Positions 8,739 to 32,481 of a DNA stretch of 42,808 nucleotides are shown here, in pieces. Within the stretch, counting starts at the first letter, position 1. The number at the start of each line of letters is the position of its first letter. The translations under genes were made by a program, and so were the position numbers. Source of the stretch: an uncultured Clostridia bacterium (GTDB lineage Bacteria; Bacillota; Clostridia; Christensenellales; Aristaeellaceae); the NCBI GenBank assembly GCA_946409855.1, contig CAMJXZ010000001.1, positions 1 to 42,808 of the forward strand, written 5' to 3'. The notes under the pieces were generated by a model, which worked only from the letters and a program-made list of their open reading frames with translations, was not told the DNA's origin and did no database searches.

Positions 8739-9925
8739 AGAATTTTGTTTTTATCTCGCCGAATTTCCCGGCCAACTACCAGATGTTCTGCCGGGAGCTC
8801 AAAGCCAACGGCCTCCGCGTGCTGGGGATCGGGGACTGCCCGTATGACGGGCTGACGCAAGCGCTCCGGGAGAGCCTGACGGAATACTACAAGGTCGGCT
8901 CCCTGGAAAACTATGACGAGGTCTACCGCGCCGTCGCCTATTTCATCAGCCGGTACGGACGGATCGACTGGCTGGAGAGCAACAACGAGTACTGGCTCAC
9001 CCACGACGCGATGCTGCGGACGGACTTCCGCATCACCAGCGGCTGGCAGACGGAAGACCTCAGGCGGATCCGCTACAAGAGCGGGATGAAGGAATACTAC
9101 CGGCGGGCGGGCATCCCCGCGGCCCGCTGGCACATCGTGGACGATTTTGACGGCTGCATGGCCTTTATCCGGGATACCGGCTGGCCCGTGATCGCCAAGC
9201 CGGACGACGGCGTCGGCGCTTCGGATACGCACAAGCTGACCTGCGAGGAAGACCTCCGGGCGTTTCTTGCCGGGAAGCGGCCGGAAGTCTCCTATATCAT
9301 GGAGGAATTCATCACCGGGCGGACCATCAGCTACGACGCCATCCTGGACAGCAACGGCGACCCGCTCTTTGAGACCGGCAACGTGACCCCGATGCCGATC
9401 ATGGACATCGTCAACAACCAGGACAACACCCTGTTCTATATCCTCAAGGACCTGCCGGACGACGTGCGCGCTTTCGGCCGCGCCGCGGCCAAAAGCTTCG
9501 GCGTGCGCAGCCGGTTCGTGCACTTTGAGTTTTTCCGCCTGACCTGCGACCAGCCCATGGGCAGGGCCGGGGACGTGGTCGCGCTGGAAGTGAACATGCG
9601 GCCCAGCGGCGGCTATTCCCCGGACATGATGAACTTCGCCAATTCCACCGACGTATACAAGATCTGGGCGGACATGATCGCCTTCGACCGTTCCACGAAG
9701 CCGGAAGGGGAGCATTATTACTGCGCCTTCGCCGGCCGGCGGGACAAAAAGCATTTCGCCCTGTCCCATGAAGCGCTGTGCGCGAAGTACGCCGAACAGC
9801 TGCGGATGGTGGAGCGCACCCCCGAAGCCCTTTCCGGGGCCATGAGCGACCAGATGTACCTGGCCGTGTTCCCGACCGAGGAAGAGATGTTCGCGTATTT
9901 CGACGACGTGAGCCGGGAAGCGTAA
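8735..9925 (+). CDS. ATP-grasp domain protein (carboxylate-amine ligase-like)
   Basis: WPVIAKPDDGVGASDTHKL (ATP-grasp phosphate-binding strand) and VALEVNMRPSGG (E-x-N Mg site). Translationally coupled to the upstream esterase. Confidence 0.7.
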   Translation: MKNFVFISPNFPANYQMFCRELKANGLRVLGIGDCPYDGLTQALRESLTEYYKVGSLENYDEVYRAVAYFISRYGRIDWLESNNEYWLTHDAMLRTDFRITSGWQTEDLRRIRYKSGMKEYYRRAGIPAARWHIVDDFDGCMAFIRDTGWPVIAKPDDGVGASDTHKLTCEEDLRAFLAGKRPEVSYIMEEFITGRTISYDAILDSNGDPLFETGNVTPMPIMDIVNNQDNTLFYILKDLPDDVRAFGRAAAKSFGVRSRFVHFEFFRLTCDQPMGRAGDVVALEVNMRPSGGYSPDMMNFANSTDVYKIWADMIAFDRSTKPEGEHYYCAFAGRRDKKHFALSHEALCAKYAEQLRMVERTPEALSGAMSDQMYLAVFPTEEEMFAYFDDVSREA

Positions 9926-10029
9926 GCAAAGCCCTGCCGTAAAGCGCCTGTCCGCCCGCGCCCGGCGGCCGCGTTCCCCGCCGGAAGCGGCGCCGACAAA
10001 AAAACAACGACCTGAAGGAGACAACCGGC

Positions 10030-15754: not shown

Positions 15755-16282
15755 TTACTTTTCCCTTCGTCTCCGGATCGCGCCCCGGAGCCCCGGAACA
15801 AACGAAACGACAGCCCCGAACGCCGCCAGCTCCGCCCCGATCTGCAGCCGGCAGCTGAGCCGCCGGTCCCCCAGGGTAGCGGGCACCTCGCTGGTTTCCG
15901 GGGTGGAATAGATGCGCTGAAGAACCGCCCGGTCCAGTACGAAGAACAGGGCGAACAGCGCGGCCAGAATCAGCGCCAGCCATAGCCCGCGCCGGTCCAG
16001 CCAAAGGGACAGCCGGCCCGGGCGCAGCGGCGGCCGGACCGCGCGCAGCAGCCCCCGGGCGCAAACCGCCAGCAGCAGAACGGCAAAGATCAGCATCTGG
16101 AGATAGGCGTAGAACATCGCGACCGATTCGTACAGCCGCTCCTGCACTTCCATGCGGTTCAGCTGCCAGGTCCTGAAGGCGTCCCCTGTCATCCCGGAAA
16201 AGGTGAACGTCAGAAAGAGCATCAGGGCGGTCAGGATCGCAAACACGATGACCTTCCACAGTTTGACGGGACGAGTTGTCAT
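15755..16282 (-). CDS. 4-TM membrane protein, function unknown
   Basis: The ATG at 16282 is preceded by GGAGGAGAACAA and overlaps the kptA stop (ATGA). Four hydrophobic helices are present (IVFAILTALMLFLTF, MLIFAVLLLAVCA, LWLALILAALFALFFVL, LAAFGAVVSFV). Confidence 0.6.
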   Translation of the reverse strand: MTTRPVKLWKVIVFAILTALMLFLTFTFSGMTGDAFRTWQLNRMEVQERLYESVAMFYAYLQMLIFAVLLLAVCARGLLRAVRPPLRPGRLSLWLDRRGLWLALILAALFALFFVLDRAVLQRIYSTPETSEVPATLGDRRLSCRLQIGAELAAFGAVVSFVPGLRGAIRRRREK

Positions 16283-16818
16283 TTGTTCTCCTCCAGATAC
16301 TGGTAAGGCACATGCCTGGTCAGCCATACCCCGTTCACGGACAGGAAGAAAGGATACCCGTCTTCCGCCATCTTTCCGGCGTTCACCCGGAAAACGAACG
16401 GCTTCCCGTGCCGCGTGCCCACCCTGACCGCGGTCGCCTCCTCCGCGGAGAGATGGACGTACAGCCGGGATTTGGGAACCAGCCCTTCCCGCAGGATCGA
16501 AGGCACATACTTTTCTCCCGTGCCGTGGTACAGCACGGCCGGCGGCTCAGTCTGTTTGAGTTCCACGTCCACGGGGATGGAATGGCCCTGGTTGGCCCGG
16601 ATCAGCGTGTGGTCCTCGTTGAAGGAATAGCGCTGCTTGCTGTCCGTCCGAACGATCTCCTCCAGGTCCTCCATGGTCAGGGGATGCGTTTTGCTCACGC
16701 CTTCGATCAGTTCGTTCACATCCGCCCAGCCGTGTTCGTCCAGGGTGATGCCCGCGGCTTCCGGCTGGTGCCGCAGGACCAGGGAAATAAATTTGCTTGT
16801 ATGGATCAGATCGCTCAT
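16279..16818 (-). CDS. kptA: RNA 2'-phosphotransferase, Tpt1/KptA family
   Basis: MSDLIHTSKFISLVLRHQPE...GWADVNELI...IRANQGHS...LYHGT...LYVHLS is the KptA signature. The ATG at 16818 is preceded by AAAGGAGA. The 43-codon upstream extension in the ORF track would overlap the neighbouring gene and is R/G-rich. Confidence 0.85.
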   Translation of the reverse strand: MSDLIHTSKFISLVLRHQPEAAGITLDEHGWADVNELIEGVSKTHPLTMEDLEEIVRTDSKQRYSFNEDHTLIRANQGHSIPVDVELKQTEPPAVLYHGTGEKYVPSILREGLVPKSRLYVHLSAEEATAVRVGTRHGKPFVFRVNAGKMAEDGYPFFLSVNGVWLTRHVPYQYLEENK

Positions 16819-16883
16819 AAAAACCAGTCTCCTTTCAAATAACGGGTCTGCGGTGTTTCCGGTCCGGCGCGCCGGTGCCTTTT

Positions 16884-17552
16884 TTAACCGGGATCCTCCG
16901 CGCGGATCCGCACGGCGTCCGCTTCCGGCATGAGCCTTTTCATCCACCGCTCAACGGAAAGCGCCCTGTTTTCGGGGATGCCGCGGTTCACGCCGTAGAC
17001 CCGGGCGCCCGGGACGCATTCCGAAAACTCCTTCCCGACGGCGACCGCTTCCCCCACCACGCTTTCCTTGAAGCACCGGCCGCCGAAGTACAGCAGGCTG
17101 CCCGCCGATTCCGTGAGGGCCGGCTCTTCCGGCCCGAAGTCTTCCCTCCGCAGGATTTCTTTCCGGATGACCAGCTGCCGGATGAGGCAGTGGATAAAGC
17201 AGCCGCAGCCGATCTTTTTGAGGCTCTCCGGCAGCACAAGCCGCCCGATGCAGCAGCCGTTGAAGGCGCCGTCCTCCAGCAGGACGCAGCTTTCCGGAAA
17301 AACGACGTCCTCCAGGATCAGCGCGCTCCGGAAATCCTCCGCCCCGGCCCGGGAACGGCCGGCCCCGATCACCCGCACCCCTTCCGGAATCCGGAGATGC
17401 CGGACCGACAGGCGGAACCCTCCCGGCAGATAACCGCCCTTTTCCAGCGTATTGTCCGGGCCGGCGCAGAACGACACAAGCCGTCCGTCCGGACCGACCT
17501 CAAACGTTCCGCTTTCGTTGATGATTTCGGTGTTTGCGCAGTTTTCGCTCAT
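16884..17552 (-). CDS. BspA-type leucine-rich repeat (LRR_5) protein, no signal peptide
   Basis: Repeats of the type IPEGVRVIGAGRS..., FPESCVLLEDGAFNGC, LPESLKKIGCGCFIHC. The N-terminus MSENCANTEIINESG is not hydrophobic. Confidence 0.7.
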   Translation of the reverse strand: MSENCANTEIINESGTFEVGPDGRLVSFCAGPDNTLEKGGYLPGGFRLSVRHLRIPEGVRVIGAGRSRAGAEDFRSALILEDVVFPESCVLLEDGAFNGCCIGRLVLPESLKKIGCGCFIHCLIRQLVIRKEILRREDFGPEEPALTESAGSLLYFGGRCFKESVVGEAVAVGKEFSECVPGARVYGVNRGIPENRALSVERWMKRLMPEADAVRIRAEDPG

Positions 17553-17580
17553 CGCCGTTTTCCTTTCCCCCGTGTCCGCT

Positions 17581-19464
17581 TTAATCCCACAGCCGCCACA
17601 GGTACTCCTTCAGCATATCAAACCCGGCTTTCATTTCCCTGTCCGCAAACTCGTTGAGCACAGCCTGGCCGTTGTTGATTTCGCTTAGCTGTCCGTTCAG
17701 GTATCCCTGCACCATTCCCTCCGGGATGGTCTGCAGCGCCGGCTGCAGCTGCGGCTTTTCCAGGCACTGGCCGATCAGGGAGGACAGCACCCCGTCCGGA
17801 AGATCCATCCCCCTGAGTTCCGAGGCGTTTCTGAATTTGGCGGCCATTTCTTTCAGAATCCGGCTCCATTCCTCCGGTTCGACGTCCATCGGATGGGCAA
17901 AGTGTCCGTACGACAGAATCTCCAGCATCTCCGCCAGCAGATGGGGAATGTACTCGTCCAGGTTCCACACGGCTTCCGTGTAAAACCCTCTTTCCGCGCA
18001 CTCCAGCCGGTATATCTCTTCCTGTTCCGGAAACGCCCAGGGCCGGTGCGCCCAGTCCAGCCCGTACGGATCCTTCAGCAGGCTCCGGGCCCGGTGCTTC
18101 AGGTGATCCGGCAGGGCAATGCTTTCAGCGCTCAGGCCGCCGCAGCCGAAGAACACATTCCGCCCGATCACCTGAACGCTTTGCGGAATCGTGACGCGCG
18201 TTAACCCCGCGCAGCCGTTGAACGCGTCGTTTTCAATGATCTCAAGGCCGTCCGGCAATTCTACGCCGCTTAAGCCGCCGCAGCCGGCAAACGCCCGGAA
18301 ACAGATCCGCCGGAGGGACGGCGGCAAAGTGATATCCGCCAGGGAGGCGCAGCCGGCAAACGCCCCGTTGCCGATCCTTTCCGTTTTGGGCATTGCCACG
18401 GTCGTAAGACACCCGCACCCGTAAAACGAGTAGCCGTAGATATATTTTGTTCCGGGGAGCGCAGCCTCTCTCAGGCTGCCGCACCCATAAAACATTCCCT
18501 GATTCAAATAACGTACTTTTTCCGGGATCCTGACCGTTTCCAGCCGATCGCAGCCGGAAAAAGCAAATTTGCCGATTTCTTCCACGCTGTCCGGAAGGAC
18601 AACGGTTTTCACGGTCCGGCAGTTCCGGAACGCGCCGTAGGCAATTTTCCGAATGCCGTCCGGCACGACAGCCGTTTCTTCCTCCCCCGCGTACCGTTTC
18701 ACGGTGTCCCGGCCGCTCAGGATCAGGTGATGCTCATCATCGATGATTTGAAAGCTTGTCCCCGCTTCCGTCCGGGTCTTCTCCAGCCTTCCGCCGGCGC
18801 AGCGGACGGAATATTCCTGAAGGTCGGCCCGGTCCATCATCTGCTCATTGAACTCGCTGACGGAGCCATCAAACCGGAATTCTTTCAGCCGGCCGCAGTC
18901 CGAAAAATTCCCCAGCGAAATCACGGAAAGGCTGCGGGGGATGGTGACGGACGACAGCGATCCGCAATGGCACACCGCACCCGGTCCAAGCCTGAGCACA
19001 CCCTCCGGAATGACATACTCAGATTCTGTTTTCCCGGGCGGATACTGGACCAGAACGGTCCCGTCCCTGCTGTACAGCACGCCGTTCACGGACATGTATG
19101 TCGTGCTGTCGGGAGACGCGTGGATCGCCCGGAGAGAGCCGCACCGGATAAAGCCGCGGGGAGAAATCTCCGAAACGCGTTTTCCGAGCCATATCTCAGA
19201 CAGACCCGGGCAGGAAAAGAAAGTGCCCATGATGATTTTCTCAACGCCGTCCCCCACCCGCACGCTTTCCAGGCAGTCACAGTTCATGAACGATTTCACC
19301 CCGACGGACACGACGCTGTCCGGAATGATCACGCGCCGGACAGTCCGGCAGTCCGTGAACGCGCCTCTGCCGATGGCGCGGACCTGTTCCGGAATGACGA
19401 CTTCTTCCTCCTGCCCCTGATACCGGGTCAGCACGCCGTCCTCTATGACAAAATCCTGATTCAT
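17581..19464 (-). CDS. BspA-type LRR (LRR_5) protein with unrecognised ~180-aa C-terminal domain, no signal peptide
   Basis: About 15 repeats such as IPEQVRAIGRGAFTDCRTVRRVIIPDSVVSVGVKSFMNCDCLESV. The C-terminal helical domain (DPYGLDWAHRPWAFPEQEEIYRLE...) is unassigned. Confidence 0.75.
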   Translation of the reverse strand: MNQDFVIEDGVLTRYQGQEEEVVIPEQVRAIGRGAFTDCRTVRRVIIPDSVVSVGVKSFMNCDCLESVRVGDGVEKIIMGTFFSCPGLSEIWLGKRVSEISPRGFIRCGSLRAIHASPDSTTYMSVNGVLYSRDGTVLVQYPPGKTESEYVIPEGVLRLGPGAVCHCGSLSSVTIPRSLSVISLGNFSDCGRLKEFRFDGSVSEFNEQMMDRADLQEYSVRCAGGRLEKTRTEAGTSFQIIDDEHHLILSGRDTVKRYAGEEETAVVPDGIRKIAYGAFRNCRTVKTVVLPDSVEEIGKFAFSGCDRLETVRIPEKVRYLNQGMFYGCGSLREAALPGTKYIYGYSFYGCGCLTTVAMPKTERIGNGAFAGCASLADITLPPSLRRICFRAFAGCGGLSGVELPDGLEIIENDAFNGCAGLTRVTIPQSVQVIGRNVFFGCGGLSAESIALPDHLKHRARSLLKDPYGLDWAHRPWAFPEQEEIYRLECAERGFYTEAVWNLDEYIPHLLAEMLEILSYGHFAHPMDVEPEEWSRILKEMAAKFRNASELRGMDLPDGVLSSLIGQCLEKPQLQPALQTIPEGMVQGYLNGQLSEINNGQAVLNEFADREMKAGFDMLKEYLWRLWD

Positions 19465-19538
19465 CCCCCTGCATCCTTTCTGTGACGGCCCTTGCGTGCC
19501 GGGCCGGCTCTTTCACAAACAGACTCCCGAGGCGGTTT

Positions 19539-20708
19539 TCACACGCAGACCCATTCCACCGTCTGTGCCTCGTCCGGCATGGGCGGCACCGTTTTGTCCA
19601 GCATCCGGGCGACGGCGCTTTCCGGGACGGCGCCGGGTCTGCCAGCGTTCCGCTGCTGACGCGTCTCCGGGTCCGTCTCCAGATAGACGATCCGGACCCG
19701 GGCCCCGTACCGTTCGCACAGGCTGACGAGTTTGGCCCTGTTCTCCCTGGTCAGGCTGGTGGCGTTCCAGATGAACGGCTGCTTCCCGCGCAGATGCTCC
19801 CGGACCCGATCCCGGGCCGCCTGAACGACCGCCCCCTGTTCCTCCGTCGGCCGGACGCCCATTTCCCGCCGGATATCGTCCATGGATACCACCGGCAGGT
19901 CCGGATGATGCCGCCTGATCCAGGTATCCTTCCCGGTGCCGGGCAGGCCGGACATCATAATCACTTCTCCCCAGGTATCGTCGTACAGGCACTGGTCCGG
20001 CCCCACGTTCCGCCCGGAGAGGCAGGCCCGCGCCGTATAGCTGTTCTGAAAGCGGCAGGGGCCGCGCAGGCATCCCGCTTCCCCGGCGAGCAGCATGGAC
20101 AGCTGGATCTGCGAAAGGTATTCCTCAATATCCCCCGCGTCCCTGCCCCGGGCGTCCGCCTCGGCCAGCATGCCCGTCAGCGCCCAGGAAAAGTCCTTCG
20201 CGAGCACCCCCGCGGCAGCCGCCGTCCGGGCGCGCAAAGCCGCTTCCTCCTGATCCACCAGGTGAAACGGCACCATATGATGCCGCACCAGGGCGCAGAC
20301 GGTCTCCCGGAAGGAAAGGGCCTCCATCGTCCCGCTGAGCCCGCAGTCCCGCCAGAGGAAGATGCGGACCAGCTGACTGCCCACCGCCGCGTGATGGGGG
20401 GACACCCAGGCCCCGCCGTCCAGCCGGGTCGTCTTCGCCTTGCCCAAATCGTGCAGCACCGCCGCCAGGAACAGTTCCGTTTTTACGCGTTTATCCAGCG
20501 CGTGGAAATCAGCCTTGCGGTTCAGTTCCCCGCACACCATCCTCGTATGGGTGAGCACGTCCCCTTCCCCGTGAAACACCGGGTTCTGCGGTGTCGACTG
20601 AAGGTCCTGAAAGCAGGAAGCGGCCAGCAGGGGTCCGATCTCTTCCCAGGCGATCCGGCTGCCGGCGGAATCGGGCACGAGCCGGGCAAACCGGTGAAGC
20701 CATGTCAT
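19539..20708 (-). CDS. HD-domain phosphohydrolase fused to P-loop polynucleotide-kinase-like (AAA_33-type) domain
   Basis: N-terminus NPVFHGEGDVLTHTRMV...AAVLHDLGK is an HD domain resembling the HD of CCA-adding enzymes. C-terminus VIMMSGLPGTGKDTW is a Walker A, with IWNATS and RIVYLE strands. The ATG at 20708 lies 8 nt after GGAGG and is preferred over the GTG at 20714. Confidence 0.75.
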   Translation of the reverse strand: MTWLHRFARLVPDSAGSRIAWEEIGPLLAASCFQDLQSTPQNPVFHGEGDVLTHTRMVCGELNRKADFHALDKRVKTELFLAAVLHDLGKAKTTRLDGGAWVSPHHAAVGSQLVRIFLWRDCGLSGTMEALSFRETVCALVRHHMVPFHLVDQEEAALRARTAAAAGVLAKDFSWALTGMLAEADARGRDAGDIEEYLSQIQLSMLLAGEAGCLRGPCRFQNSYTARACLSGRNVGPDQCLYDDTWGEVIMMSGLPGTGKDTWIRRHHPDLPVVSMDDIRREMGVRPTEEQGAVVQAARDRVREHLRGKQPFIWNATSLTRENRAKLVSLCERYGARVRIVYLETDPETRQQRNAGRPGAVPESAVARMLDKTVPPMPDEAQTVEWVCV

Positions 20709-20735
20709 TTGCACCGCCTCCTTTCCTCCGTCCGT

Positions 20736-21527
20736 TCAGAACAGGCTTTCCACCGGCACGGCCAGCTGGTTGGGGATGATCGGCTTGTCGATCCAGTGCT
20801 GTTCGGAAAAGTCCACGCACTGCAGGAAGGCGGAACGTACGAACTTCATCCGGTCCACAACCCGGCCGTCCTCCTCGATCTTGATGTACAGCCCTTCCAT
20901 CATCCCGGACAGCTCGGTTTCGGCGCAGGCCTTTTCCGGATCCAGGCGGAGCTTTTCCGCCGCGTCCCGCAGATGCGCCCGCTGGCTGCCGGTGGTAAAA
21001 CGGGACTGCCCCAGCAGGCCCAGCAGTTCTTCCTTCTTCTGAAAGCAGCCGTGTCCCAGCACCGGAACGGAAACCACCGGGCTTCCTTCCAGCATTTTCT
21101 TCCGCGCCGGCGTATCCAGAAAGACGCCGGTTTCCCGGTCCAGGATGTCGAACTCCAGGAAATAGTGGGGCAGCGCGTCATAAAAAACGGTATGCTTGGC
21201 GTACAGCCACTCGCCGTACATGATGTATCTTGTCCCCAGCAGGTCATACAGCTCGTCCCGGCAGGCCACGGCCCATTGCTTCATCAGGTTGAAATGGCGC
21301 TCCCGGTAGCCGCCGGTCAGGTAATGGCCCCGGCTCTGCAGCAGCAGTTCCCCGTTTCCGTCAAAGGATACGGCGGAATTTGCCCCGTCCACCTTTTCCT
21401 CCACGGTCAGGCAGCGCCCCCTGATGGACGCGAAAGGAACCTGGCTCAGGTCCTCGTCCCCCGGCTGCAGGCGCGAGCCCTCGATATGAGGGGTGCGGGG
21501 GTATTTGCGCATTTTATACGGATCCAT
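20736..21527 (-). CDS. ATP-dependent RNA ligase family protein (covalent nucleotidyltransferase)
   Basis: N-terminal KYPRTPHI, motif I EKVDGAN (the KxDG lysine), motif III-like YGEWLYAKH, motif IV EGLYIKIE, motif V MKFVRSAF. GGAGGGA RBS lies 8 nt upstream. Confidence 0.8.
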   Translation of the reverse strand: MDPYKMRKYPRTPHIEGSRLQPGDEDLSQVPFASIRGRCLTVEEKVDGANSAVSFDGNGELLLQSRGHYLTGGYRERHFNLMKQWAVACRDELYDLLGTRYIMYGEWLYAKHTVFYDALPHYFLEFDILDRETGVFLDTPARKKMLEGSPVVSVPVLGHGCFQKKEELLGLLGQSRFTTGSQRAHLRDAAEKLRLDPEKACAETELSGMMEGLYIKIEEDGRVVDRMKFVRSAFLQCVDFSEQHWIDKPIIPNQLAVPVESLF

Positions 21528-21542
21528 CGCTGATCCCTCCTT

Positions 21543-21765
21543 ATACTGATTTTCATCTAAAACATGTGCAGATGTGGGATGGATTTTGCAGAAGAATCAA
21601 GGAAGGCATCCGAAAGCGTACCCGAAGGTCGGCGAGGGCTGTGAGGGCCCGGAAAATGATCCAGTGGATCATTTTCACCGAACAGCGGGCCGGCAGGCCC
21701 CGGAAGACGCAGAGATGGCGCAAAAGGCGCCCACAGATGTGCATGGATTGGGTGAAAATCAGTAT
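21543..21765. repeat. MITE-like inverted-repeat element, copy 1 (~223 bp, no ORF)
   Basis: Perfect 13-bp termini ATACTGATTTTCA (21543-21555) and TGAAAATCAGTAT (21753-21765), extending imperfectly to ~36 bp. Internal perfect 11-bp hairpin at 21652-21676. Core 21610-21639 is shared with copy 2. Confidence 0.6.
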
Positions 21766-21767
21766 TA

Positions 21768-22469
21768 TTATCCGATTGCCGCCACCAGGAACAGATGTCC
21801 TTCCACGCCGTCAAAATGAAGCCTGGTGCACCCGGCATCAGCGAACAAACGCGTCAGCCTGTCCTTGGTCAGCACATGTATGTGCTCCGGGTTGCTGTCC
21901 GGCTTGGACGGAACGGTCACCACCACGTACTGCCGGGCCATGCGGACCGCCGCCAGGACGGCCTGCTCCACCGCCGGGATGTGCTCCAGCACCTCCAGCA
22001 GCGTGACGACGTCAAAGCTCCCGTCCGGAAACGGCTGCCGGCAGACGTCCTTCTGCTCCGCGTGCATCTGCGGAAAACCGCCGTCCGCCAGCTCGTTGAG
22101 GAAGACGACCCGCTTTTCCAGCAGGTCCAGGCTCGTCACCCGCACCCAGGGGAATTCCTTCATGAACGGGATCAGGAACACGCCCCGGCCGCTGCCCACG
22201 TCCAGCATCGTTTCAAAGGAAACCGAATGCAGGAACCCCAGGGTCCTTTTCGTCCGGGCCAGCGTCTGCGTGCCGGCCTTGAAAGGATAGAGCTTAAGCC
22301 CCGCCTCCTGCCCCGCCCGCACGATCCGCAGGCATTCTTCCTCCGTGCATTCGTCCGCCGTTTTCCGGGCGGTCTGCGCCGGCAGCTCCGGGACGCCCGT
22401 CCTTCTGTGATGTCCCAGGATCCAGGCGGCGGCAGTTTTCAGGTCATATTTTTCCTCAAGCGTTTCCAT
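21768..22469 (-). CDS. class I SAM-dependent methyltransferase
   Basis: Motif I MLDVGSGRGVF, post-I SLDL, DVVTLLEVLEHIP. The ATG at 22469 is preceded by AAGGAGA. The upstream extension in the ORF track is R/P-rich. Confidence 0.75.
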   Translation of the reverse strand: METLEEKYDLKTAAAWILGHHRRTGVPELPAQTARKTADECTEEECLRIVRAGQEAGLKLYPFKAGTQTLARTKRTLGFLHSVSFETMLDVGSGRGVFLIPFMKEFPWVRVTSLDLLEKRVVFLNELADGGFPQMHAEQKDVCRQPFPDGSFDVVTLLEVLEHIPAVEQAVLAAVRMARQYVVVTVPSKPDSNPEHIHVLTKDRLTRLFADAGCTRLHFDGVEGHLFLVAAIG

Positions 22470-22530
22470 GGGTTTCTTTCTCCTTGCTGCACACACCGGG
22501 GCTGCCCCGCGAAAGGAAGCGCCCCCAAAG

Positions 22531-25500
22531 TCAGGCGGCCGGGTCCGCCAGCTCACGGATCATCCGGACGGTCTCCTCATACGTTTTATCGATTTCCATA
22601 AAGTCAAAGCCGTTCTCCCGGGCGTACGCTTCCGCGGTGGAGCCGGGGTAGCCGTGGATCACCGGCGGCGGATTCCTCCGCCACAGCTCTTCCCGCGTCT
22701 GCCCCGGACCGGGCGTCCAGCGGTAGAACGCCAGTTCCTCGATCACCATATCCGGCTGATAGACCCAGATGTCCACCCGGCGGCTGCTGGAAACCGCCTC
22801 GCTGGATACCTGCCGCATGCCCGGCGGCAGCACCAGGAAGCGCAGGGCGGGGCAGTTGATCAGCCCGTATCCTTCGATTTCCCTGCATCCTTCCGACAGG
22901 ATGATCCACTGGACCGGCGCCAGCGTAAACGCGTCCGAAGAGATGCTGGTCAGGCTTTTGGGCACCTCGACGCCCTTCATGCCGCATTCCTGAAACGCGA
23001 ATTCCTCCACGCCCGTGAGACGGGCGGACAGCGTCAGGTCCCGCAGGGATTCACAGCTGAAAAACGCGCCCCGGCCGATCCTGTACACGCCGCTCAGGTC
23101 GATTTCCCGGAGCGAGCGGTCTCCCTCAAACGCCCATTCATCGATGGAACGGATCTGGCCTTCCGTCCTGACCGACTCCAGCTTCGGGCAGCATGAAAAA
23201 GCGTAAGCGCCGATTTCTTCCAGCGCGCCGGGGGCGTAAACTTTCCTCAGCTCATCGCACTCATAAAACTCCGTATCGTGCACCTGGCGCTGAAAACCGG
23301 ACAGGGTGATCTCCCGCACGTCAAAAAGATATACTTCCCACGTACAGGTCACCGGGCAGTTGTCCGCCACGTTGAACCAGGGCACCCGCACCGTGTCGGC
23401 CTGCTTCGTCATGTACGCGCACTCGCCCTTCAGATCAAAGCAGTCGGACCAGCTGTCAATGTCCTCAAACCGGATGTTCGATTCCCCGGCGATCCATTCC
23501 GACAGCGTTCCCTTTCTGCCGCCGATCACGAAATCGGCGGGAAAATCGGAAAACTCCGTATAGGCCCGGGCATGTTCCCCCAGCTTCGCCCCGTCGCACA
23601 GGAACTGTACCCATTGAAGGCCGGAGCATCCGTAAAAAATGCTTCCTTCCAGCACTTCAACCTGAGCCGGCACCACCAGGTATTTGAGCTTGCTCTCCAT
23701 GAAGGCGCCCCAGCCGATCCGGCGGAGGTTCTGCGGCAGCACCAGGGTTTCCATGCCGCAGCCTTCAAACGCCATCTGCGGGATTTCCGTGAGTTCTTCC
23801 GACAGCCGGATCTCCCGCAGCGCGACGCAGTCGAAAAAAATCTCCTCGTCGATCTGCCGGACGGAATCGGGCATCCACAGCCGTTCCAGATTCCGGCAGG
23901 CGCTGAATGCCCCCTGGCCGATCCGCGTCACGCCCAAGGGCAGGGTCACATCCGCCAGCCCCGTTCCTGCAAAGGCGTCATCCCCAATCAGACGGAGGCC
24001 TTTCCCCCAGGTAATTTCAGACAGTTTTTCGCAGCCCAAAAACGCGCTTTTCCCGATCTGTTCCGTTTTTTCCCCAATCCGGACCCGGACCAGGTTTTTA
24101 TTATTCGCACAGATCTGATCCGGGATGATGAAAAGCCCGTCCGGAAATTCGATTTCCGCGGCGGACGGAATCCTGACATCCTTCCCGATCGAGACGACCG
24201 GCCGCCCGTCCACCAGGGAAGGAATGACGAGCTTTTCCGCTTCGGTTTGGAGACCCGTCAGCATAAGGCCTCCTTCCGTTTCCTCAAAGGTCATTTCGCC
24301 GCCGTCGGCGAAGCGGTGCCCGCCTGCCTGCGCGTACGCGTCCTGCACGCCATCCCGCCGGCCCCAGATGAGCAGGTCCTCCCTCGCCCCGTCAAAAACG
24401 TTCAGCCCGATGGTCCGGAGTTCCTCGTTCAGATGGACCTCCCGTAAGCCCCCGCAGCCGTAAAACGCCTGGTCCCCCAGCAACCGCACGCTTTCCGGCA
24501 GCGTCACCGCCTCCAGCGTTTCGTCCCCGCGGAACGCGTCCCGTTCCACCGCCGTCACCGGGATCCCCATCACGCTTCCCGGCAGCGTCCGCCGGGCGTC
24601 CCCGCCCCGCCACTGCCGCATGATGTGGAACCCGTCCTTCCGCAGCGAATAAAGCAGCCCCTGCCCCAGCGGCAGCCCCGTGACGAAGTTCGCGATCACC
24701 GCCGTCATCACCAGCAGCGCCGCGCAGAACGCCGTCAACAGACGCCGCCGCATCCGCCGGCGCCACCGCACCTGTTCAGGCAGCGGCAAAAGATAAAGCC
24801 CCGCCCGGAACTCCTCCATCGACTGCGTCCGCTTTTCCGGCTCCACCGCCAGCGCGTTCATCAGCGCCGCGTCCTGCTTCCTGCCCAGCTTTACCTGAAG
24901 CGCCGCCGGGGATTTGAGCTCGTCCCGCCGGGCGCGCAGCAGGGATTCCTGCGGCGCTTCCCCCGTCAGCAGCTCATAGATCACCGCCGCCAGGCCGTAC
25001 ACGTCCGACCAGGGGCCCTGCCGGCCGTATTCCTTCCCATACTGCTCCACCGGCGCGTACCCGCGGGACAGGATGATCGTTTCCCCGTGCCGCTCCGTCC
25101 GCATCGCCGCCCCGAAGTCGATCAGCCGCGCCGTTCCGTCTTCCTCCACCAGGATGTTCTCCGGCTTCAGGTCCCGGTGCACCACCCCCTGCCGGTGCAG
25201 CAGCACCAGCGCGTCCATGACCGGCCGCAGGAAAGAAAGCGTCTGGGCCGGCTGAAGCTTCCGCTCCGCCGCCCATTCGTCCAGCGGGCGGCCGTGGATG
25301 TACTCCATCACGATATACGCCGTATTGTTTTCCGAAAAGAAGTCCAGCACCTTGACCACGTTCGGGATGTCGCTGAGCGACGCCAGCAGATGGCTCTCCC
25401 GCTCAAACCGAAGCCGCCCTTCCAGGAAGACCGTCTCCTGCGCTTCCACGCAGACGACCTCGTCCGACACGCCCGTGTCCCGGGTGACCAGGTCCGAGGG

Positions 25501-25740
25501 AAAGTATTCCTTGACCGCTACCGGACGGTCCAGGTTTTCGTCCCACGCCGCGTAGGTGATCCCGAAGCCGCCCTTCCCGATGACCGCGCCCAGCTGGTAC
25601 TTGCCGTTCAAAAGGGTCCCTTCCTCCAGGACGGCCGGCGGCCGTTCCCCGCTCCCGTCAAACCCGCAGTGCGGACAGACCCCCTCTTCCTTCATTTCCC
25701 GCATGCAGCGGGAACAGTAATACTGTCCGTTGATTTCCAT
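22531..25740 (-). CDS. Zn-ribbon / Ser-Thr protein kinase / single TM / extracellular BspA-type LRR receptor kinase
   Basis: N-terminal CSRC...CPHC zinc ribbon. Kinase motifs GKGGFGITY, VAVKE, HRDLKPENIL, IDFGAA, GYAPVEQ. TM segment LLTAFCAALLVMTAVIANFV. About 700 aa of LRR_5 repeats follow (LPESVRLLGDQAFYGCGGL and similar). Confidence 0.85.
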   Translation of the reverse strand: MEINGQYYCSRCMREMKEEGVCPHCGFDGSGERPPAVLEEGTLLNGKYQLGAVIGKGGFGITYAAWDENLDRPVAVKEYFPSDLVTRDTGVSDEVVCVEAQETVFLEGRLRFERESHLLASLSDIPNVVKVLDFFSENNTAYIVMEYIHGRPLDEWAAERKLQPAQTLSFLRPVMDALVLLHRQGVVHRDLKPENILVEEDGTARLIDFGAAMRTERHGETIILSRGYAPVEQYGKEYGRQGPWSDVYGLAAVIYELLTGEAPQESLLRARRDELKSPAALQVKLGRKQDAALMNALAVEPEKRTQSMEEFRAGLYLLPLPEQVRWRRRMRRRLLTAFCAALLVMTAVIANFVTGLPLGQGLLYSLRKDGFHIMRQWRGGDARRTLPGSVMGIPVTAVERDAFRGDETLEAVTLPESVRLLGDQAFYGCGGLREVHLNEELRTIGLNVFDGAREDLLIWGRRDGVQDAYAQAGGHRFADGGEMTFEETEGGLMLTGLQTEAEKLVIPSLVDGRPVVSIGKDVRIPSAAEIEFPDGLFIIPDQICANNKNLVRVRIGEKTEQIGKSAFLGCEKLSEITWGKGLRLIGDDAFAGTGLADVTLPLGVTRIGQGAFSACRNLERLWMPDSVRQIDEEIFFDCVALREIRLSEELTEIPQMAFEGCGMETLVLPQNLRRIGWGAFMESKLKYLVVPAQVEVLEGSIFYGCSGLQWVQFLCDGAKLGEHARAYTEFSDFPADFVIGGRKGTLSEWIAGESNIRFEDIDSWSDCFDLKGECAYMTKQADTVRVPWFNVADNCPVTCTWEVYLFDVREITLSGFQRQVHDTEFYECDELRKVYAPGALEEIGAYAFSCCPKLESVRTEGQIRSIDEWAFEGDRSLREIDLSGVYRIGRGAFFSCESLRDLTLSARLTGVEEFAFQECGMKGVEVPKSLTSISSDAFTLAPVQWIILSEGCREIEGYGLINCPALRFLVLPPGMRQVSSEAVSSSRRVDIWVYQPDMVIEELAFYRWTPGPGQTREELWRRNPPPVIHGYPGSTAEAYARENGFDFMEIDKTYEETVRMIRELADPAA

Positions 25741-26597: not shown

Positions 26598-28958
26598 TTA
26601 TTGATGGGTATACCGCTCCGTCCTCACGTCGTACTGCCAGACATGCCCGTCGTACCGGATGAGCACGCTGCCTTCCCGGTCGACCTGAAGATCCAGCAGG
26701 CGGACGGTGTTTCCCGCGTCATCCGTCACATCGACCACATAGCTGCCATAGTGCAGACGGCTGCTCTGCTGTTCGTCCGCCCGCATGGAAAAACCGGTAT
26801 ACAGGGGGATATCCGCGGCTTCCGGATCATCCGGCGAAAACACCCGGACTTCCTTCCATCGACCGTTCACCTGCTCCTGCAGGCGGATCACGCCCGCTTC
26901 ATACAGGTAACGGACGGCGGGCGTCTGCGTCCAGTCCAGATACGTGCAGGAACCGTCCGCGAAGAACGCGGTATTGGTGACAGCGTTCCCGTCGTTCATC
27001 TGAATCACATTGATGAACGACACGCTGCCATCTTTTTCCCGGTTCACGGAGAACACGGTGCCTTCCCAGCCGTTGATGTCCATGAAGCCGCCGTTGTTCA
27101 CGCCGTAGCTGGTGCTGCCTTCCTTGCTCTCCCAGACCACGAAGCCCCGGGGCCAGCCGGTATCGGTGGCCGCGCCGTAGAAATAATTATCCCAGACAAA
27201 GTGCCAGTTGGGGCTGTAGGTGGCCATATCGCCCAGGTTGACGAATTCCTTGGGCACATCGCACTGGCCGTATTCGTTGCCGCCGGTGGCCAGGACGGTG
27301 CCGTCCGCGAACAGCCCCAGCGTATGATAGGCGCCGGCCGCGACGGCGGTCACGCCCCGCCAGTTTTCCGTATTGATTTCGCCGTACTCATTTTTCCCCA
27401 TGGCGGTCACCGTGCCGTCCGCGTGCAGATAGACGCAGTGGTAGGTGCCGCAGGCGATGCCGCAGATATCCCGCAGGCCGTCCACGCTGATCTGGCCGTT
27501 GTTCGAGCGGCCGGCGGCGATGACGGTCCCGTCCGGATGAAGGCCCAGGGTGTTGAAATCCCCCGCGGCCATTCTGATCACATCGCTCCAGCCGGTCAGC
27601 TCGCGGCTGCCGTAGTCGTTGGCGCCGAAGGTACAGAAGGTGCCGTCCTTCATGCGCGCCGCGCTGAACAGGTACCCCGCGCAGATTTCCGCGACGCCGG
27701 ACAGGCCATCGATGTCCGCCTGTCCATAGTTGTTCAGTCCGGCGGCGTGCACCACCCCGTCGGCGTCCAGGCCCAGGGTAAAGTGGCCGCCCGCGGCGAT
27801 GGCGACGATGTTCTTCCAGTCCTGCACGTCGCACTGGCCGTCGCCGTTCTCCCCGGCCGCGACCACGGTGCCGTCCGCCCGGAGGCCCACCGAAAACCAG
27901 CTGCCGCCGGCGACGGCGACGATGTCCGTCCAGCCTTCCACGTCGCACTGGCCGGAATTGTTGCGGCCAAAGGCGCGGACGGTCCCGTCCTCCATAAGCA
28001 GCAGCGTATGGAAGCCGCCACCGTCCAGGGCGATGACCTTTTTATCGCTTCTGGGAAACGACGCCAGCAGCGCTTCCCGGCTGGGACGCAGATATGCCGG
28101 GATTTCGCAGGCGCCGTACAGGTCCGAGCTGCTCGCCGTCAGCACCGTACCGTCCGCGCGCAGGCCGACGCTGTGGCAATAACCCACGCCGACGGCTATC
28201 ACGCCCGTCCACTCGTCCACCTCGGTCATGCCGTATTTGTCTCTTCCCAGGCCGGTGACCGTGCCGTTTTTGTGCAGAATCAGGCCGCACATATCATTAT
28301 TGGCGATGTCGACGGCATCCGTGACGCCTTCAACAAGGCGCTGGTTGATCCCTGTGATCACGCTGCTCCCGTTTTCCAGAAGCCCGATCAGGGCGCTTTG
28401 GCCGGAAATCTTCTCAACGCCCTGCCATTCCTCCGCGCCCCCTGTTTGATACCCGCGGGATCCGCGCACCGTTCCGTCCTTCATCAGGGCAGCCCAGCCT
28501 CCGGAAGAAGCATGGATCGCCCGCACGCCGGTCAGGCTGCCCGGCCCGGCTTCCGGCTTCAGGCGCCCCGCCGAGTGCACATTGCCCGCCGCGTCCAGGC
28601 CGAAGGTCTGCGCGTCCATGCAGGCGACCTGGACGATGTTTTTCCAGTCCGCCACATCGCACTGGCCGTATTCGTTATCCCCGGCCGCGACCACCGTGCC
28701 GTCCGCCTTCAGCCCGACGCTGTGGCTCATGCCCGACGCGATCCCCACAATGTCCCGCCAGGAGGACACGTCCAGCTGGCCGTACGCGTTTTCGCCCGCG
28801 GCGGCGACGGTGCCGTCCTCCAAAAGGATCAGCGTATGCAGACTTGCGACAGAGATCGCCTTCGCCATCGGCTGCGCCGCCTCCTCCGCGGAAACTGAGG
28901 GGGACAGAACCGTCAAAAGCAGCATCAGCGCGGTCAGTATCACAGTAATCCGTTTCAT
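26598..28958 (-). CDS. secreted RCC1-repeat (beta-propeller) protein with unassigned C-terminal domain
   Basis: Signal peptide MKRITVILTALMLLLTVLSPSVSA. More than 12 repeats of the type H(S/T)xGLxxDGTVxAAGxNxYGQCDVxxWxxIVxIA. The last ~230 aa are non-repetitive. The ATG at 28958 lies 7 nt after AAGGAGA. Confidence 0.8.
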   Translation of the reverse strand: MKRITVILTALMLLLTVLSPSVSAEEAAQPMAKAISVASLHTLILLEDGTVAAAGENAYGQLDVSSWRDIVGIASGMSHSVGLKADGTVVAAGDNEYGQCDVADWKNIVQVACMDAQTFGLDAAGNVHSAGRLKPEAGPGSLTGVRAIHASSGGWAALMKDGTVRGSRGYQTGGAEEWQGVEKISGQSALIGLLENGSSVITGINQRLVEGVTDAVDIANNDMCGLILHKNGTVTGLGRDKYGMTEVDEWTGVIAVGVGYCHSVGLRADGTVLTASSSDLYGACEIPAYLRPSREALLASFPRSDKKVIALDGGGFHTLLLMEDGTVRAFGRNNSGQCDVEGWTDIVAVAGGSWFSVGLRADGTVVAAGENGDGQCDVQDWKNIVAIAAGGHFTLGLDADGVVHAAGLNNYGQADIDGLSGVAEICAGYLFSAARMKDGTFCTFGANDYGSRELTGWSDVIRMAAGDFNTLGLHPDGTVIAAGRSNNGQISVDGLRDICGIACGTYHCVYLHADGTVTAMGKNEYGEINTENWRGVTAVAAGAYHTLGLFADGTVLATGGNEYGQCDVPKEFVNLGDMATYSPNWHFVWDNYFYGAATDTGWPRGFVVWESKEGSTSYGVNNGGFMDINGWEGTVFSVNREKDGSVSFINVIQMNDGNAVTNTAFFADGSCTYLDWTQTPAVRYLYEAGVIRLQEQVNGRWKEVRVFSPDDPEAADIPLYTGFSMRADEQQSSRLHYGSYVVDVTDDAGNTVRLLDLQVDREGSVLIRYDGHVWQYDVRTERYTHQ

Positions 28959-29031
28959 GGTCATTCTCCTTGATGATACGGGACATTTTTATTTGAACCC
29001 GTTTTCATTATAACGGCACTCGCGCGCGGAA

Positions 29032-32363: not shown

Positions 32364-32481
32364 GTTCATTCTCCTTTCAAAGCCCGGCACCGCCGGTTTC
32401 TCCTCCGGTACGCCGCGGCGGCTTCCCGCCGGCCGCGTTTCTTTACTGCGTGTACAGCCTACCACAGGACCGCCCGCGCCT

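Follow-up and report, generated by a model that had tools for sequence, protein, structure and literature searches.

Gene clusters that combine a ligase with an HD-Pnk protein are already known from two bacterial lineages. The cluster of Tpt1, MTase-HIT, ligase and HD-Pnk in Runella, and the hypothesis of a Tpt1 repair pathway, came from the Shuman laboratory in 2017-2018, and the Runella HD-Pnk is a 2',3'-phosphoesterase (PMC6097658). An operon of Deinococcus radiodurans had been reported earlier (Blasius 2007), comprising a ligase (DRB0100), a PARG/macro-like protein (DRB0099) and an HD + Pnk protein (DRB0098) (PMC1997131; PMC11833690). Radiation induces this operon, and DNA is a substrate of its kinase (PMC1997131), so DNA ends are a possible substrate of such cassettes; DRB0099 binds ADP-ribose (PMC1997131), and PARG strips ADP-ribose from phosphate ends (PMC11833690). 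The ligases of both cassettes form E-AMP and leave ordinary 3'-OH/5'-PO4 substrates unsealed, and since no ligase of this family has so far sealed any substrate in vitro (Runella, PMC6097658; Deinococcus, PMC1997131), 'heal and seal' is unproven for the family. RslTpt1 acts strictly on internal 2'-PO4 groups, showing no activity towards terminal phosphates or in the capping of 5' ends (PMC6573784); in archaeal tRNA, a 2'-phosphate installed by ArkI is erased by Tpt1 (PMC12621583); and an NAD+-dependent 'wing' of RNA repair that includes KptA, 2H, Macro and NADAR was delineated by Aravind and colleagues (PMC9503650). Repair cassettes of the kind considered here were thus known, and the novelty that the original prediction had seen in the architecture and in the Tpt1 hypothesis was anticipated in 2007 for the ligase/HD-Pnk operon of Deinococcus (PMC1997131) and in 2018 for Tpt1 in Runella slithyformis (PMC6097658).

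We analysed a stretch of 42,808 nucleotides (the window) from an uncultured Clostridia bacterium, in which genes for a methyltransferase, an RNA ligase, an HD-Pnk and KptA lie on the minus strand (Table 1). The coordinates of these genes had been predicted correctly, and the four enzyme assignments were borne out by Pfam matches, by motifs and, for KptA, by an NCBIfam equivalog. The four activity classes (cyclic-phosphate opening, 5' kinase, ATP-dependent ligase and Tpt1) fall within 6.2 kb of the window. The four genes had also been described as lying on one strand with spacers of 20-75 nt; the shared orientation stands, but the contiguity does not. The HD-Pnk stop and the KptA start are 2.72 kb apart, with two previously unmentioned BspA-type leucine-rich-repeat (LRR) genes in between, and spacers of 74, 28 and 65 nt are obtained only when both LRR genes are counted. 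A simple scan of this interval found no terminator-like site, so co-transcription is possible. KptA and the other three genes do not form one compact operon. What is conserved is a cassette of three genes, which encode a SAM methyltransferase, an RNA ligase with the adenylyltransferase domain only (PF09414) and HD-Pnk. The kinase-LRR gene located 61 nt upstream of the methyltransferase is part of the neighbourhood, outside the cassette: its position is kept in L170 and L172, two contigs of the same species, and other lineages have different neighbours there.

Table 1. Features of the repair locus and its surroundings, in window coordinates.
Feature	Position	Strand	Evidence or remark
Small predicted membrane protein	15755..16282	-	Translationally coupled to KptA
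KptA/Tpt1 RNA 2'-phosphotransferase, 179 aa	16279..16818	-	PF01885 E 3e-49
Short LRR_5-like protein, 222 aa	16884..17552	-	PF13306 E 2e-7; immediately upstream of KptA
BspA-type leucine-rich-repeat protein, 627 aa	17581..19464	-	PF13306 E 7e-71; between HD-Pnk and KptA
HD-Pnk, N-terminal HD domain and C-terminal P-loop kinase	19539..20714	-	PF01966 E 5e-5; AAA_33 E 9e-28
ATP-dependent RNA-ligase-like enzyme, adenylyltransferase domain alone, 263 aa	20736..21527	-	PF09414 E 2.5e-32
MITE-like insertion, 223 nt	21543..21765	.	36-nt imperfect terminal inverted repeats, central 12-nt palindrome
Class I SAM-dependent methyltransferase, 233 aa	21768..22469	-	Pfam Methyltransf_23/11/25, E 1e-12
Ser/Thr protein kinase fused to BspA-type LRRs, 1069 aa	22531..25740	-	Pfam Pkinase and LRR_5

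The HD-Pnk probably starts at the ATG at 20708, which gives 389 aa as in its relatives, and contains the motifs NPVFHGEGDVLTHT, HDLGK and GLPGTGKDT. Over its full length it shares 37% identity with the HD-Pnk of Runella zeae (E 8e-74), and its HD ligands and P-loop are invariant. At E ≤ 1e-30, the family comprises 447 clusters (50% identity). The protein is predicted to be a 2',3'-phosphoesterase fused to a 5'-OH polynucleotide kinase; the similarity of its kinase module to the Pnkp kinase is weak (TIGR04075, E 1e-6). As had been proposed, the HD domain resembles that of CCA-adding enzymes, its profile matching best in the PDB the HD domain of a class II CC/CCA-adding enzyme (3wfo-3wfs, E 5e-10). 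The CCA-enzyme HD was reportedly found by Yakunin in 2004 to have 2',3'-cyclic phosphodiesterase and 2'-nucleotidase activity. The Runella HD domain is said, in a 2017 abstract by Munir and Shuman, to strip 2',3'-cyclic, 3' and 2' phosphates alike; removal of the 2' phosphate argues against an obligatory 2'-PO4 junction.

The ligase lacks a C-terminal domain. Its nucleotidyltransferase motifs I (K45, EKVDGAN), III (E106), IIIa (F123/F126), IV (E211-G212, EGLYIK) and V (K228/R231, KFVR) are invariant in 34 aligned sequences, the Runella type included, and a KYPRTPH motif is conserved at the N-terminus. The best Foldseek matches of the ligase model were T4 Rnl2, REL1, NgrRnl and Rnl3, with Rnl5 also among the nearest and Trl1-LIG ranked 27th or lower, which gives little support to the Trl1-like mechanism first proposed. 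The methyltransferase, the opening gene of the cassette, carries a family-specific N-terminal helical extension of ~80 aa and has >2000 homologues, the best 120 of which are 74-98% identical and ~234 aa long. Its AF2 model (pLDDT 89.6) is closest in fold to two sugar O-methyltransferases, AtmM and RebM; the protein does not match the Hen1 model and lacks the Hen1 N-terminal ligase-activating domain. It is not demonstrably Hen1-like, and a methylation step is therefore suggested by analogy only.

KptA, judged by its sequence, is a genuine Tpt1-type RNA 2'-phosphotransferase. It clears the NCBIfam equivalog NF002014 (244.2 bits versus a cut-off of 239), has a complete and invariant catalytic tetrad (R16, H17, R63, R118), and is 47-50% identical to Runella Tpt1, its best PDB match being that of Runella slithyformis (7kw8, E 8.8e-52). 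A terminator-like hairpin (15714-15701) follows the downstream membrane-protein gene. The 627-aa LRR protein has no obvious signal peptide; in the conspecific contig L172, too, HD-Pnk is followed by an LRR gene, which elsewhere is not a conserved partner. The order of the two LRR genes and KptA is repeated in L164, where KptA is 94% identical.

We surveyed 80 metagenomic HD-Pnk loci, counting for each partner the loci informative for it. In 44 of 57 loci, the gene directly before HD-Pnk encodes a ligase, and a methyltransferase of the window type, the commonest third partner, immediately precedes the ligase in 22 of 46. This association is clearly beyond chance, because the gene order is conserved across many lineages. 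The three genes occur together without KptA in L161, L171 and L173-L177 (ligase or methyltransferase 79-81% identical), and Blautia has only ligase and HD-Pnk. KptA was found at just one of the 35 loci with enough downstream sequence, a Runella-like one, and is absent beside the cassette in the nearest relatives outside the window's species, so that the linkage to kptA in related genomes, on which the original prediction had staked itself, largely fails. The arrangement of HD-Pnk, LRR genes and KptA is seen only in the window's species, and the census does not separate KptA linkage from chance. RlaP and a CCA-adding enzyme sit inside some cassettes, which points to RNA or tRNA substrates. Among 247 same-strand neighbouring ORFs, NADAR (8, often fused to an NMNAT-like nucleotidyltransferase), Macro (4) and ARH (4) are the most recurrent. 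With PARG and Tpt1 they indicate that cassettes repeatedly recruit NAD+/ADP-ribose enzymes, one point in favour of a KptA link.

Like the Runella slithyformis cluster, the locus has an HD-Pnk of two-domain architecture, a PF09414 adenylyltransferase-only ligase directly upstream that shares the invariant residues, and some SAM methyltransferase, and the published idea of Tpt1 as the mark of a new repair pathway in bacteria could apply to both. However, the window methyltransferase has no HIT domain and comes from a class I family unrelated to the Runella one, the ligases are 27% identical over 158 aa only, and the genes are ordered differently, with KptA adjacent in Runella and set apart by 2.7 kb and two LRR genes in the window. 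The Deinococcus operon, likened by description, shares the adenylation-domain-only ligase with its N-terminal ..KYP.. motif and EKxDG motif I lysine, the fusion of HD and polynucleotide kinase, and a third gene linked to NAD+/ADP-ribose; that gene, however, encodes an ADP-ribose eraser (PARG) and not Tpt1, a methyltransferase is missing, and the operon is on a megaplasmid, radiation-induced and discussed as DNA repair. Bacterial Pnkp/Hen1 likewise combines a 5' kinase and a 2',3' phosphoesterase with an ATP-dependent ligase and a SAM methyltransferase, but its phosphatase is a calcineurin-type metallophosphoesterase instead of an HD domain, its ligase is an Rnl4 fused to the kinase-phosphatase instead of a separate Rnl2-like adenylyltransferase domain, and its methyltransferase is of the Hen1 type. 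Phage T4 Pnkp with Rnl1/Rnl2 and the NAD+-dependent wing likewise heal and seal ribotoxin-cut tRNA, with RNA ligases contextually tied to KptA, Macro and NADAR (PMC9503650), whereas the window cassette is cellular and chromosomal, with an HD phosphoesterase in place of HAD or 2H and a dedicated methyltransferase.

By homology, the cassette belongs to the ligase/HD-Pnk family of Deinococcus radiodurans DRB0100/DRB0098 and Runella slithyformis. We consider it probable, on balance, that it heals and seals broken nucleic-acid ends, with KptA outside its core as an optional accessory at most; the most likely target is RNA cut by transesterifying ribonucleases. The HD domain would take off the 2',3'-cyclic (or 2'/3') phosphate, the P-loop domain would phosphorylate the 5'-OH, the ligase would seal the break via a lysyl-AMP intermediate at K45, and the methyltransferase would either modify the RNA or serve as an obligatory partner of the ligase, as Hen1 does for Pnkp. 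RNA healing and sealing by a system distinct from Pnkp/Hen1 and RtcAB, as first suggested, is a sensible reading. Participation of KptA is plausible, if somewhat doubtful: the family's repeated recruitment of NAD+/ADP-ribose enzymes speaks for it, and the position of KptA, 2.7 kb off behind two LRR genes and in one species only, makes it an optional accessory at most.

A serious possibility is that the adjacency of KptA is coincidental, the cassette being a small mobile or recombining unit that inserted into a part of the chromosome rich in LRR genes. KptA would then work independently, perhaps with its coupled membrane protein, whose start codon overlaps the KptA stop (ATGA), or in erasing kinase-installed 2'-phosphates as archaeal Tpt1 does with that of ArkI (PMC12621583). 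Consistent with this, the linkage occurs in a single species only, the genes flanking the cassette differ in every lineage, and close KptA homologues occupy other contexts, a 79% identical one adjoining a 5'-nucleotidase and a different methyltransferase. In the conspecific L170, identity is 97% through the methyltransferase and just 77% in the ligase, which indicates recombination inside the cassette. Against coincidence, Tpt1 recurs independently beside the cassette of the Runella lineage, whose loci reproduce the published cluster (L001, L003 and L148), an ADP-ribose theme surrounds cassettes more widely, and the window genes share a strand and short spacers uninterrupted by a terminator-like site.

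Less likely is a split pathway resembling fungal and plant Trl1 and Tpt1 tRNA splicing, as proposed originally and by Shuman in 2018, in which the HD domain would open the cyclic phosphate to 3'-OH/2'-PO4, the kinase would make the 5'-PO4, the ligase would seal only 2'-PO4 ends and KptA with NAD+ would clear the 2'-PO4 left at the junction. The same activities are present (a cyclic-phosphate-opening enzyme, 5' kinase, ATP-dependent ligase and Tpt1), the HD domain resembles that of CCA enzymes, KptA has its tetrad and RslTpt1, strict for internal 2'-PO4 (PMC6573784), as closest solved relative, and the idle Runella and Deinococcus ligases are what a requirement for an unusual 3' end would lead one to expect; the Runella linkage and the ADP-ribose-processing genes beside many cassettes also fit. 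However, the cyclic phosphodiesterase of Trl1 is a 2H enzyme that goes no further than 2'-PO4, whereas the window has an HD domain, whose Runella counterpart reportedly takes the 2'-phosphate too. The Trl1 ligase has a dedicated C-terminal module demanding 2'-PO4, whereas the window ligase has none and is nearest Rnl2/Rnl5/Rnl3, not Trl1/Rnl1. Nor is the cassette-Tpt1 linkage conserved: beyond the rarity of KptA at HD-Pnk loci and the intervening LRR genes, ~75 Chryseobacterium and related KptA loci have no HD-Pnk within 10 kb.

Repair of ADP-ribosylation damage, in which ARH, NADAR, Macro and PARG would clear adducts from RNA/DNA phosphate ends or bases, HD-Pnk and ligase would restore and join the ends, and KptA would supply an NAD+-linked step such as 2'-phosphate removal or reversible 5'-phospho-ADP-ribose capping, is suggested by the recurrent neighbours (ARH-MTase-ligase-HD-Pnk-NADAR in L116), by the ligase-PARG-HD-Pnk order in Deinococcus (PMC11833690, PMC1997131) and by ARH directly upstream of KptA in ~60 Chryseobacterium loci, but is improbable, as NADAR and ARH are absent from the window, no ADP-ribosylating toxin was seen near the cassette, KptA is a writer or phosphotransferase and no eraser, and RslTpt1-type enzymes do not cap 5'-phosphates (PMC6573784).

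The gap of 240 nt between methyltransferase and ligase is filled, as proposed, by the MITE-like insertion, which carries the ribosome-binding site of the ligase. In L172, from a 97-98% identical strain, the insertion is absent and the spacer is 13 nt; in relatives, the two genes are separated by 13-30 nt.

Each of the four enzyme assignments at this locus was borne out by Pfam, and all of the motifs quoted for them in the original prediction are present in the window proteins. The compact four-enzyme operon that it described did not survive: two LRR genes that it left unmentioned lie between the HD-kinase and KptA genes, so that KptA is 2.72 kb downstream of the HD-kinase.

Coordinates of the locus and of other features in the window
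Feature	Position	Strand	Spacing	Assignment
Ser/Thr kinase-LRR protein	25740-22531	minus	61-nt spacer to methyltransferase	
SAM methyltransferase	22469-21768	minus	240-nt gap to ligase	Pfam
MITE-like element, 223 nt	21543-21765		within the 240-nt gap	
RNA ligase	21527-20736	minus	21-27 nt spacer to HD-kinase	Pfam
HD + P-loop kinase (HD-Pnk)	20714/20708-19539	minus	74-nt spacer to LRR gene	Pfam
BspA-type LRR protein, 627 aa	19464-17581	minus	28-nt spacer to next LRR gene	Pfam
LRR-like protein, 222 aa	17552-16884	minus	65-nt spacer to KptA	Pfam
KptA	16818-16279	minus		Pfam
Small predicted membrane protein	15755-16282	minus	ATG overlaps KptA stop codon (ATGA) at 16279-16282	
YpsA-type SLOG protein	2461-3831			
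Low-GC island	4001-5144			
EF-G/Tet(M)-like GTPase, 642 aa	11363-13291			
RCC1-repeat protein	26598-28964			
Hsp70/actin-like ATPase	30426-32465			

The MITE-like element between the methyltransferase and ligase genes is bounded by imperfect terminal inverted repeats of 36 nt, 78% complementary, and has a perfect palindrome of 12 nt at its centre. A single copy occurs within the window, and this copy supplies the ligase ribosome-binding site, AAGGAGG. The insertion is recent, since a conspecific contig that is 97-98% identical (L172) has a spacer of 13 nt there. A simple consensus promoter/terminator scan found no terminator-like site between the HD-Pnk and KptA genes, and co-transcription of the two is therefore possible. 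The overlap of the KptA stop codon with the start of the membrane protein gene recurs at two comparison loci (L164 and L165). Another conspecific contig, L170, aligns to positions 21109-25719 with 97% nucleotide identity through the kinase-LRR and methyltransferase genes (to 21804) and only 77% in the ligase, which implies a mosaic allele with a recombination breakpoint at the methyltransferase/ligase junction. The window contains no tRNA genes and no Rfam matches, and exact-sequence look-ups of its KptA and LRR proteins returned no match. A mobile-element, phage or toxin context was considered and set aside, the neighbours in the window being housekeeping and glycoside-hydrolase genes. Likewise, PADLOC yielded nothing specific to anti-phage defence for the cassette, and its PD-T4-6 matches to the upstream kinase reflect a generic kinase domain.

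KptA (the RNA 2'-phosphotransferase Tpt1) matches PF01885 (E 3e-49) and passes the NCBIfam RNA 2'-phosphotransferase equivalog NF002014 with 244.2 bits against a cut-off of 239. The best solved relative is the Runella slithyformis enzyme, RslTpt1 (7kw8, E 8.8e-52), in which the Arg-His-Arg-Arg tetrad comprises R16, H17, R64 and R119 (PMC6097658). The catalytic tetrad of the window protein, R16, H17, R63 and R118, is invariant in an alignment with Runella orthologues; for these comparisons Runella sp. (85% Tpt1 identity) and R. zeae were used in place of R. slithyformis.

The gene directly downstream of the putative ATP-dependent ligase encodes a Runella-type HD-Pnk, a predicted bifunctional end-healing enzyme, which shares 37% identity with the R. 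zeae orthologue over its full length (358 aa, E 8e-74) and 33% with that of Runella sp. The N-terminal domain matches PF01966 and carries the H...HD...H...H...D pattern of metal ligands, with H48, H56, H88-D89, H108, H146 and D187 invariant relative to the Runella orthologues and the ligand equivalents invariant across 32 family members. The C-terminal domain is a P-loop polynucleotide kinase (AAA_33, E 9e-28) with the pattern GxxGxGK[D/S]T and a downstream Asp (G256-T264 and D279, again invariant relative to Runella), and it weakly matches the bacterial Pnkp kinase module in NCBIfam. At E<=1e-30 the family comprises 447 clusters at 50% identity. An earlier remark that the HD domain resembles that of CCA-adding enzymes was correct, since the best PDB match of the HD-domain profile is the HD of a class II CC/CCA-adding enzyme (E 5e-10).

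The ligase belongs by sequence to the ATP-dependent RNA ligases of the covalent nucleotidyltransferase superfamily (PF09414, E 2.5e-32) and, at 263 aa, has an adenylyltransferase domain and no other. Across 34 sequences, among them those of the Runella type, there is no variation in motifs I (KxDGxN), III, IIIa, IV and V or in the N-terminal motif KYxRTxH; the invariant residues are K45, D47, G48, N50, E106, F123, F126, E211, G212, K228 and R231. An AF2 model, with a pLDDT of only 72.6, was compared with solved structures using Foldseek. Its nearest folds are T4 Rnl2, trypanosome REL1, Naegleria Rnl5 (NgrRnl) and archaeal Rnl3 (E 2e-6 to 1e-5, TM 0.43-0.51), with Trl1-LIG at ranks 27-34 and T4 Rnl1 at ranks 38-40. 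Trl1 was absent from the matches of sequence and profile searches, and the protein has no appended C-terminal domain. We therefore rejected a Trl1-type ligase, as implied by the proposed Trl1-like pathway, the Trl1-LIG/Rnl1 clade not being the closest.

The methyltransferase is a class I enzyme of 233 aa. Members of its family share a helical extension of some 80 aa at the N-terminus, specific to them, together with the invariant motifs LEVLEH and PEHIH. The nearest folds to its AF2 model (pLDDT 89.6) are the sugar O-methyltransferases AtmM and RebM, and none of the 50 best Foldseek matches is Hen1. The family profile does match the CthHen1 methyltransferase domain (3jwi/3jwg, E 4e-8), but generic methyltransferases score equally. 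The NCBIfam Hen1 model TIGR04074 gave no match, and the N-terminal ligase-activating domain through which Hen1 pairs with Pnkp was not found (no Hen1_L match). Because single-sequence and profile PDB searches, NCBIfam and structural comparison gave no specific signal, we do not call this protein Hen1.

A similar set of genes is already known. In R. slithyformis, a four-gene cluster encodes Tpt1, a methyltransferase-HIT fusion, a putative ATP-dependent ligase and HD-Pnk, and Munir et al. (2018) tentatively took this clustering to indicate a novel bacterial repair pathway with an RNA 2'-phosphotransferase (PMC6097658). The pathway proposed for the window is thus a hypothesis published for Runella in 2018. 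Our searches recovered the Runella architecture in Runella sp. (L001) and R. zeae (L003), which carry Tpt1, the methyltransferase-HIT fusion, a PF09414 ligase of 238 aa and, overlapping it, HD-Pnk. In contrast, the window methyltransferase lacks a HIT domain and has no similarity to the Runella fusion, the ligases are only distantly related (27% identity over 158 aa), and KptA lies 2.7 kb away behind two LRR genes in a linkage confined to conspecifics. The window locus is a Clostridial variant of the known system in which the methyltransferase differs and KptA is only loosely linked. A Deinococcus operon described by Blasius et al. (2007) also encodes an adenylation-domain-only ligase (DRB0100) and an HD + polynucleotide kinase protein (DRB0098), together with DRB0099, a macro-like protein that binds ADP-ribose (PMC1997131) and is now recognised as a PARG (PMC11833690). 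Neither ligase has displayed sealing activity: the Runella enzyme forms ligase-AMP and seals none of the 3'-OH/5'-PO4 substrates tried (PMC6097658), and DRB0100 forms enzyme-AMP and ligates neither DNA nor RNA (PMC1997131).

We took a census of the cassette with an HD-Pnk profile, which gave 80 best-listed metagenomic loci (34-63% identity), many of them on short contigs; ORFs were called and searched with the window and Runella proteins (phmmer, E<=1e-4). The ligase is immediately upstream of HD-Pnk at 44 of 57 informative loci and a methyltransferase of the window type is present at 22 of 46, but KptA occurs at only one of the 35 loci with at least 3.3 kb of downstream sequence, and that locus (L148) is Runella-like. 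Closer relatives are arranged similarly. The locus with a ligase 80% identical to that of the window reads RadC-methyltransferase-ligase-HD-Pnk-GH32, the one with an 81% identical methyltransferase reads Metallophos-x-methyltransferase-ligase-HD-Pnk, a widespread lineage (P0064) has x-methyltransferase-ligase-HD-Pnk, and Blautia has the ligase and HD-Pnk only; no KptA was found within 7-10 kb of the cassette in any of these four. The window arrangement is reproduced only in conspecific contigs, with HD-Pnk followed by an LRR gene in L172 and both LRR genes followed by KptA in L164. From the KptA side, a 79% identical KptA adjoins a 5'-nucleotidase, and among 80 Bacteroidota KptA loci listed, HD-Pnk is within 10 kb only at those of Runella. 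The conserved unit is thus methyltransferase-ligase-HD-Pnk, and, judged by the refuting condition that the original prediction named, linkage of kptA to the cassette is absent from related genomes. LRR proteins were likewise rejected as conserved partners and are treated as neighbourhood, since LRR_5 occurs at only about six census loci and the nearest other lineages lack it. The cassette methyltransferase of one widespread Clostridial lineage (L173-L177, 5022-6191) is preceded, at a distance of 13 nt, by a conserved gene of 389 aa. Its sole Pfam signal is a faint match to low-molecular-weight phosphatases, and it may be another accessory gene.

Evidence that points the opposite way, towards a link with KptA, came from searching 247 same-strand ORFs within 3 kb of cassettes against Pfam. 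The commonest specific families are NADAR (8 ORFs), Macro (4) and ADP-ribosylglycohydrolase (ARH; 4), followed by CCA-adding enzyme (4) and RlaP (3), a nucleotidyltransferase that takes its name from being associated with RNA-repair ligases. By a rough estimate, 16 ADP-ribose-family matches among 247 ORFs represent strong enrichment, since we put such families at well below 1% of genes, a background that was estimated rather than computed. NADAR and/or ARH were found by tblastn at nine loci, mostly with cassettes close to that of the window (HD-Pnk mostly 46-63% identical), and the NADAR is often fused to an NMNAT-like (cytidylyltransferase-like) nucleotidyltransferase. At one such locus (L116, 3826-9617), ARH, methyltransferase, ligase, HD-Pnk and NADAR follow one another with spacers of 4-20 nt in what looks like a five-gene operon. 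Across the cassettes of the window clade (L116, L085, L091, L102, L111, L124, L130 and L150), ARH is often upstream and the NMNAT-like-NADAR fusion downstream. With the PARG of Deinococcus and the Tpt1 of Runella added to these neighbours, recruitment of NAD+/ADP-ribose enzymes is seen to recur in the cassette family, and ADP-ribose-processing enzymes predominate among the variable partners of the cassette in the census. Such a link is known in general terms, Aravind and colleagues having described an NAD+-dependent "wing" of RNA repair that includes KptA, 2H, Macro and NADAR (PMC9503650). In the window itself tblastn found neither NADAR nor ARH, and the accessory gene of this class that it carries could be KptA. 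That the cassette repairs ADP-ribose adducts, a function to which such neighbours might point, we consider quite unlikely.

In Chryseobacterium and relatives (L006-L080, about 9100-9960), ARH is directly upstream of KptA on the same strand at about 60 loci/species, in what looks like a conserved pair, and about 20 of the roughly 60 species also have NADAR at a distance of a few kb. Four other cassettes (L097, 4198-6110; L100, 7893-9784; L098; L101) carry genes for RlaP and for a CCA-adding enzyme with a PolyA_pol head and an HD domain between the ligase and HD-Pnk; these insertions suggest a role in tRNA 3' end repair.

Together, the best-supported reading, with its enzymology taken from homology, is that of a heal-and-seal cassette for RNA ends left by transesterifying nucleases. 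The HD domain would remove the 2',3'-cyclic phosphate, the P-loop kinase would phosphorylate the 5'-OH and the ligase would join the healed break, while the methyltransferase, on the model of Hen1 and Pnkp, may act as a partner that modifies and/or activates. The original observation is confirmed in part, and its interpretation supported in part. The adjacency of KptA may be pure coincidence, which we judge somewhat less likely than not; evidence that the cassette recombines as a unit, seen in the contrast between the methyltransferase and ligase of L170, agrees with coincidence.

Alternatively, the cassette and KptA together could act in the manner of Trl1 and Tpt1, but KptA linkage is not conserved and the ligase is not Trl1-like. 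In addition, the Runella HD-Pnk was reported by Munir and Shuman in 2017 to remove 2'-phosphates too. We regard such a pathway as unlikely, although two observations speak for it: RslTpt1, which among characterised enzymes is closest to this KptA, is strict for an internal 2'-PO4 (PMC6573784), and the cassette ligases of Runella (PMC6097658) and Deinococcus (PMC1997131) refuse ordinary ends. A broader and similarly doubtful proposal is that the ligase needs a chemically marked 3' end (for example 2'-PO4, 2'-O-methyl or phospho-ADP-ribosyl) and that flanking NAD+/ADP-ribose enzymes complete the repair, these being KptA in the window and Runella, PARG in Deinococcus, and ARH, NADAR or Macro in many Clostridia. 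If true, bacteria would possess Trl1/Tpt1-like or ADP-ribose-coupled RNA repair, and KptA its long-sought endogenous substrate.

The question of what bacterial Tpt1/KptA acts on dates from 1998 and still stood in 2025 (PMC6573784, PMC12621583), with no bacterial RNA bearing an internal 2'-phosphate known as of that year (PMC12621583). It is natural to seek such a substrate at a locus where Tpt1 is encoded with a kinase, a phosphoesterase and a ligase. The window is not the first such locus, the Runella cluster having made the question testable in 2018, but a second, phylogenetically distant instance, in Clostridia, of Tpt1 near the cassette. The census adds that the methyltransferase-ligase-HD-Pnk unit is abundant in gut Clostridia.

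Elsewhere in the window, a sharp low-GC island (GC 0.30 versus about 0.62 elsewhere) encodes a DUF6273 protein and was probably acquired horizontally. A possible ribosomal protection protein is the EF-G/Tet(M)-like translational GTPase, whose domains are GTP_EFTU and EFG_III/IV/C. In another protein, a sigma-70 region 4 helix-turn-helix occurs together with a SLOG domain of the YpsA type. The genes for the large RCC1-repeat protein and the divergent Hsp70/actin-like ATPase lie upstream of that for the kinase-LRR protein; in a related contig (L171), the kinase and Hsp70-like genes are on the strand opposite to the cassette.
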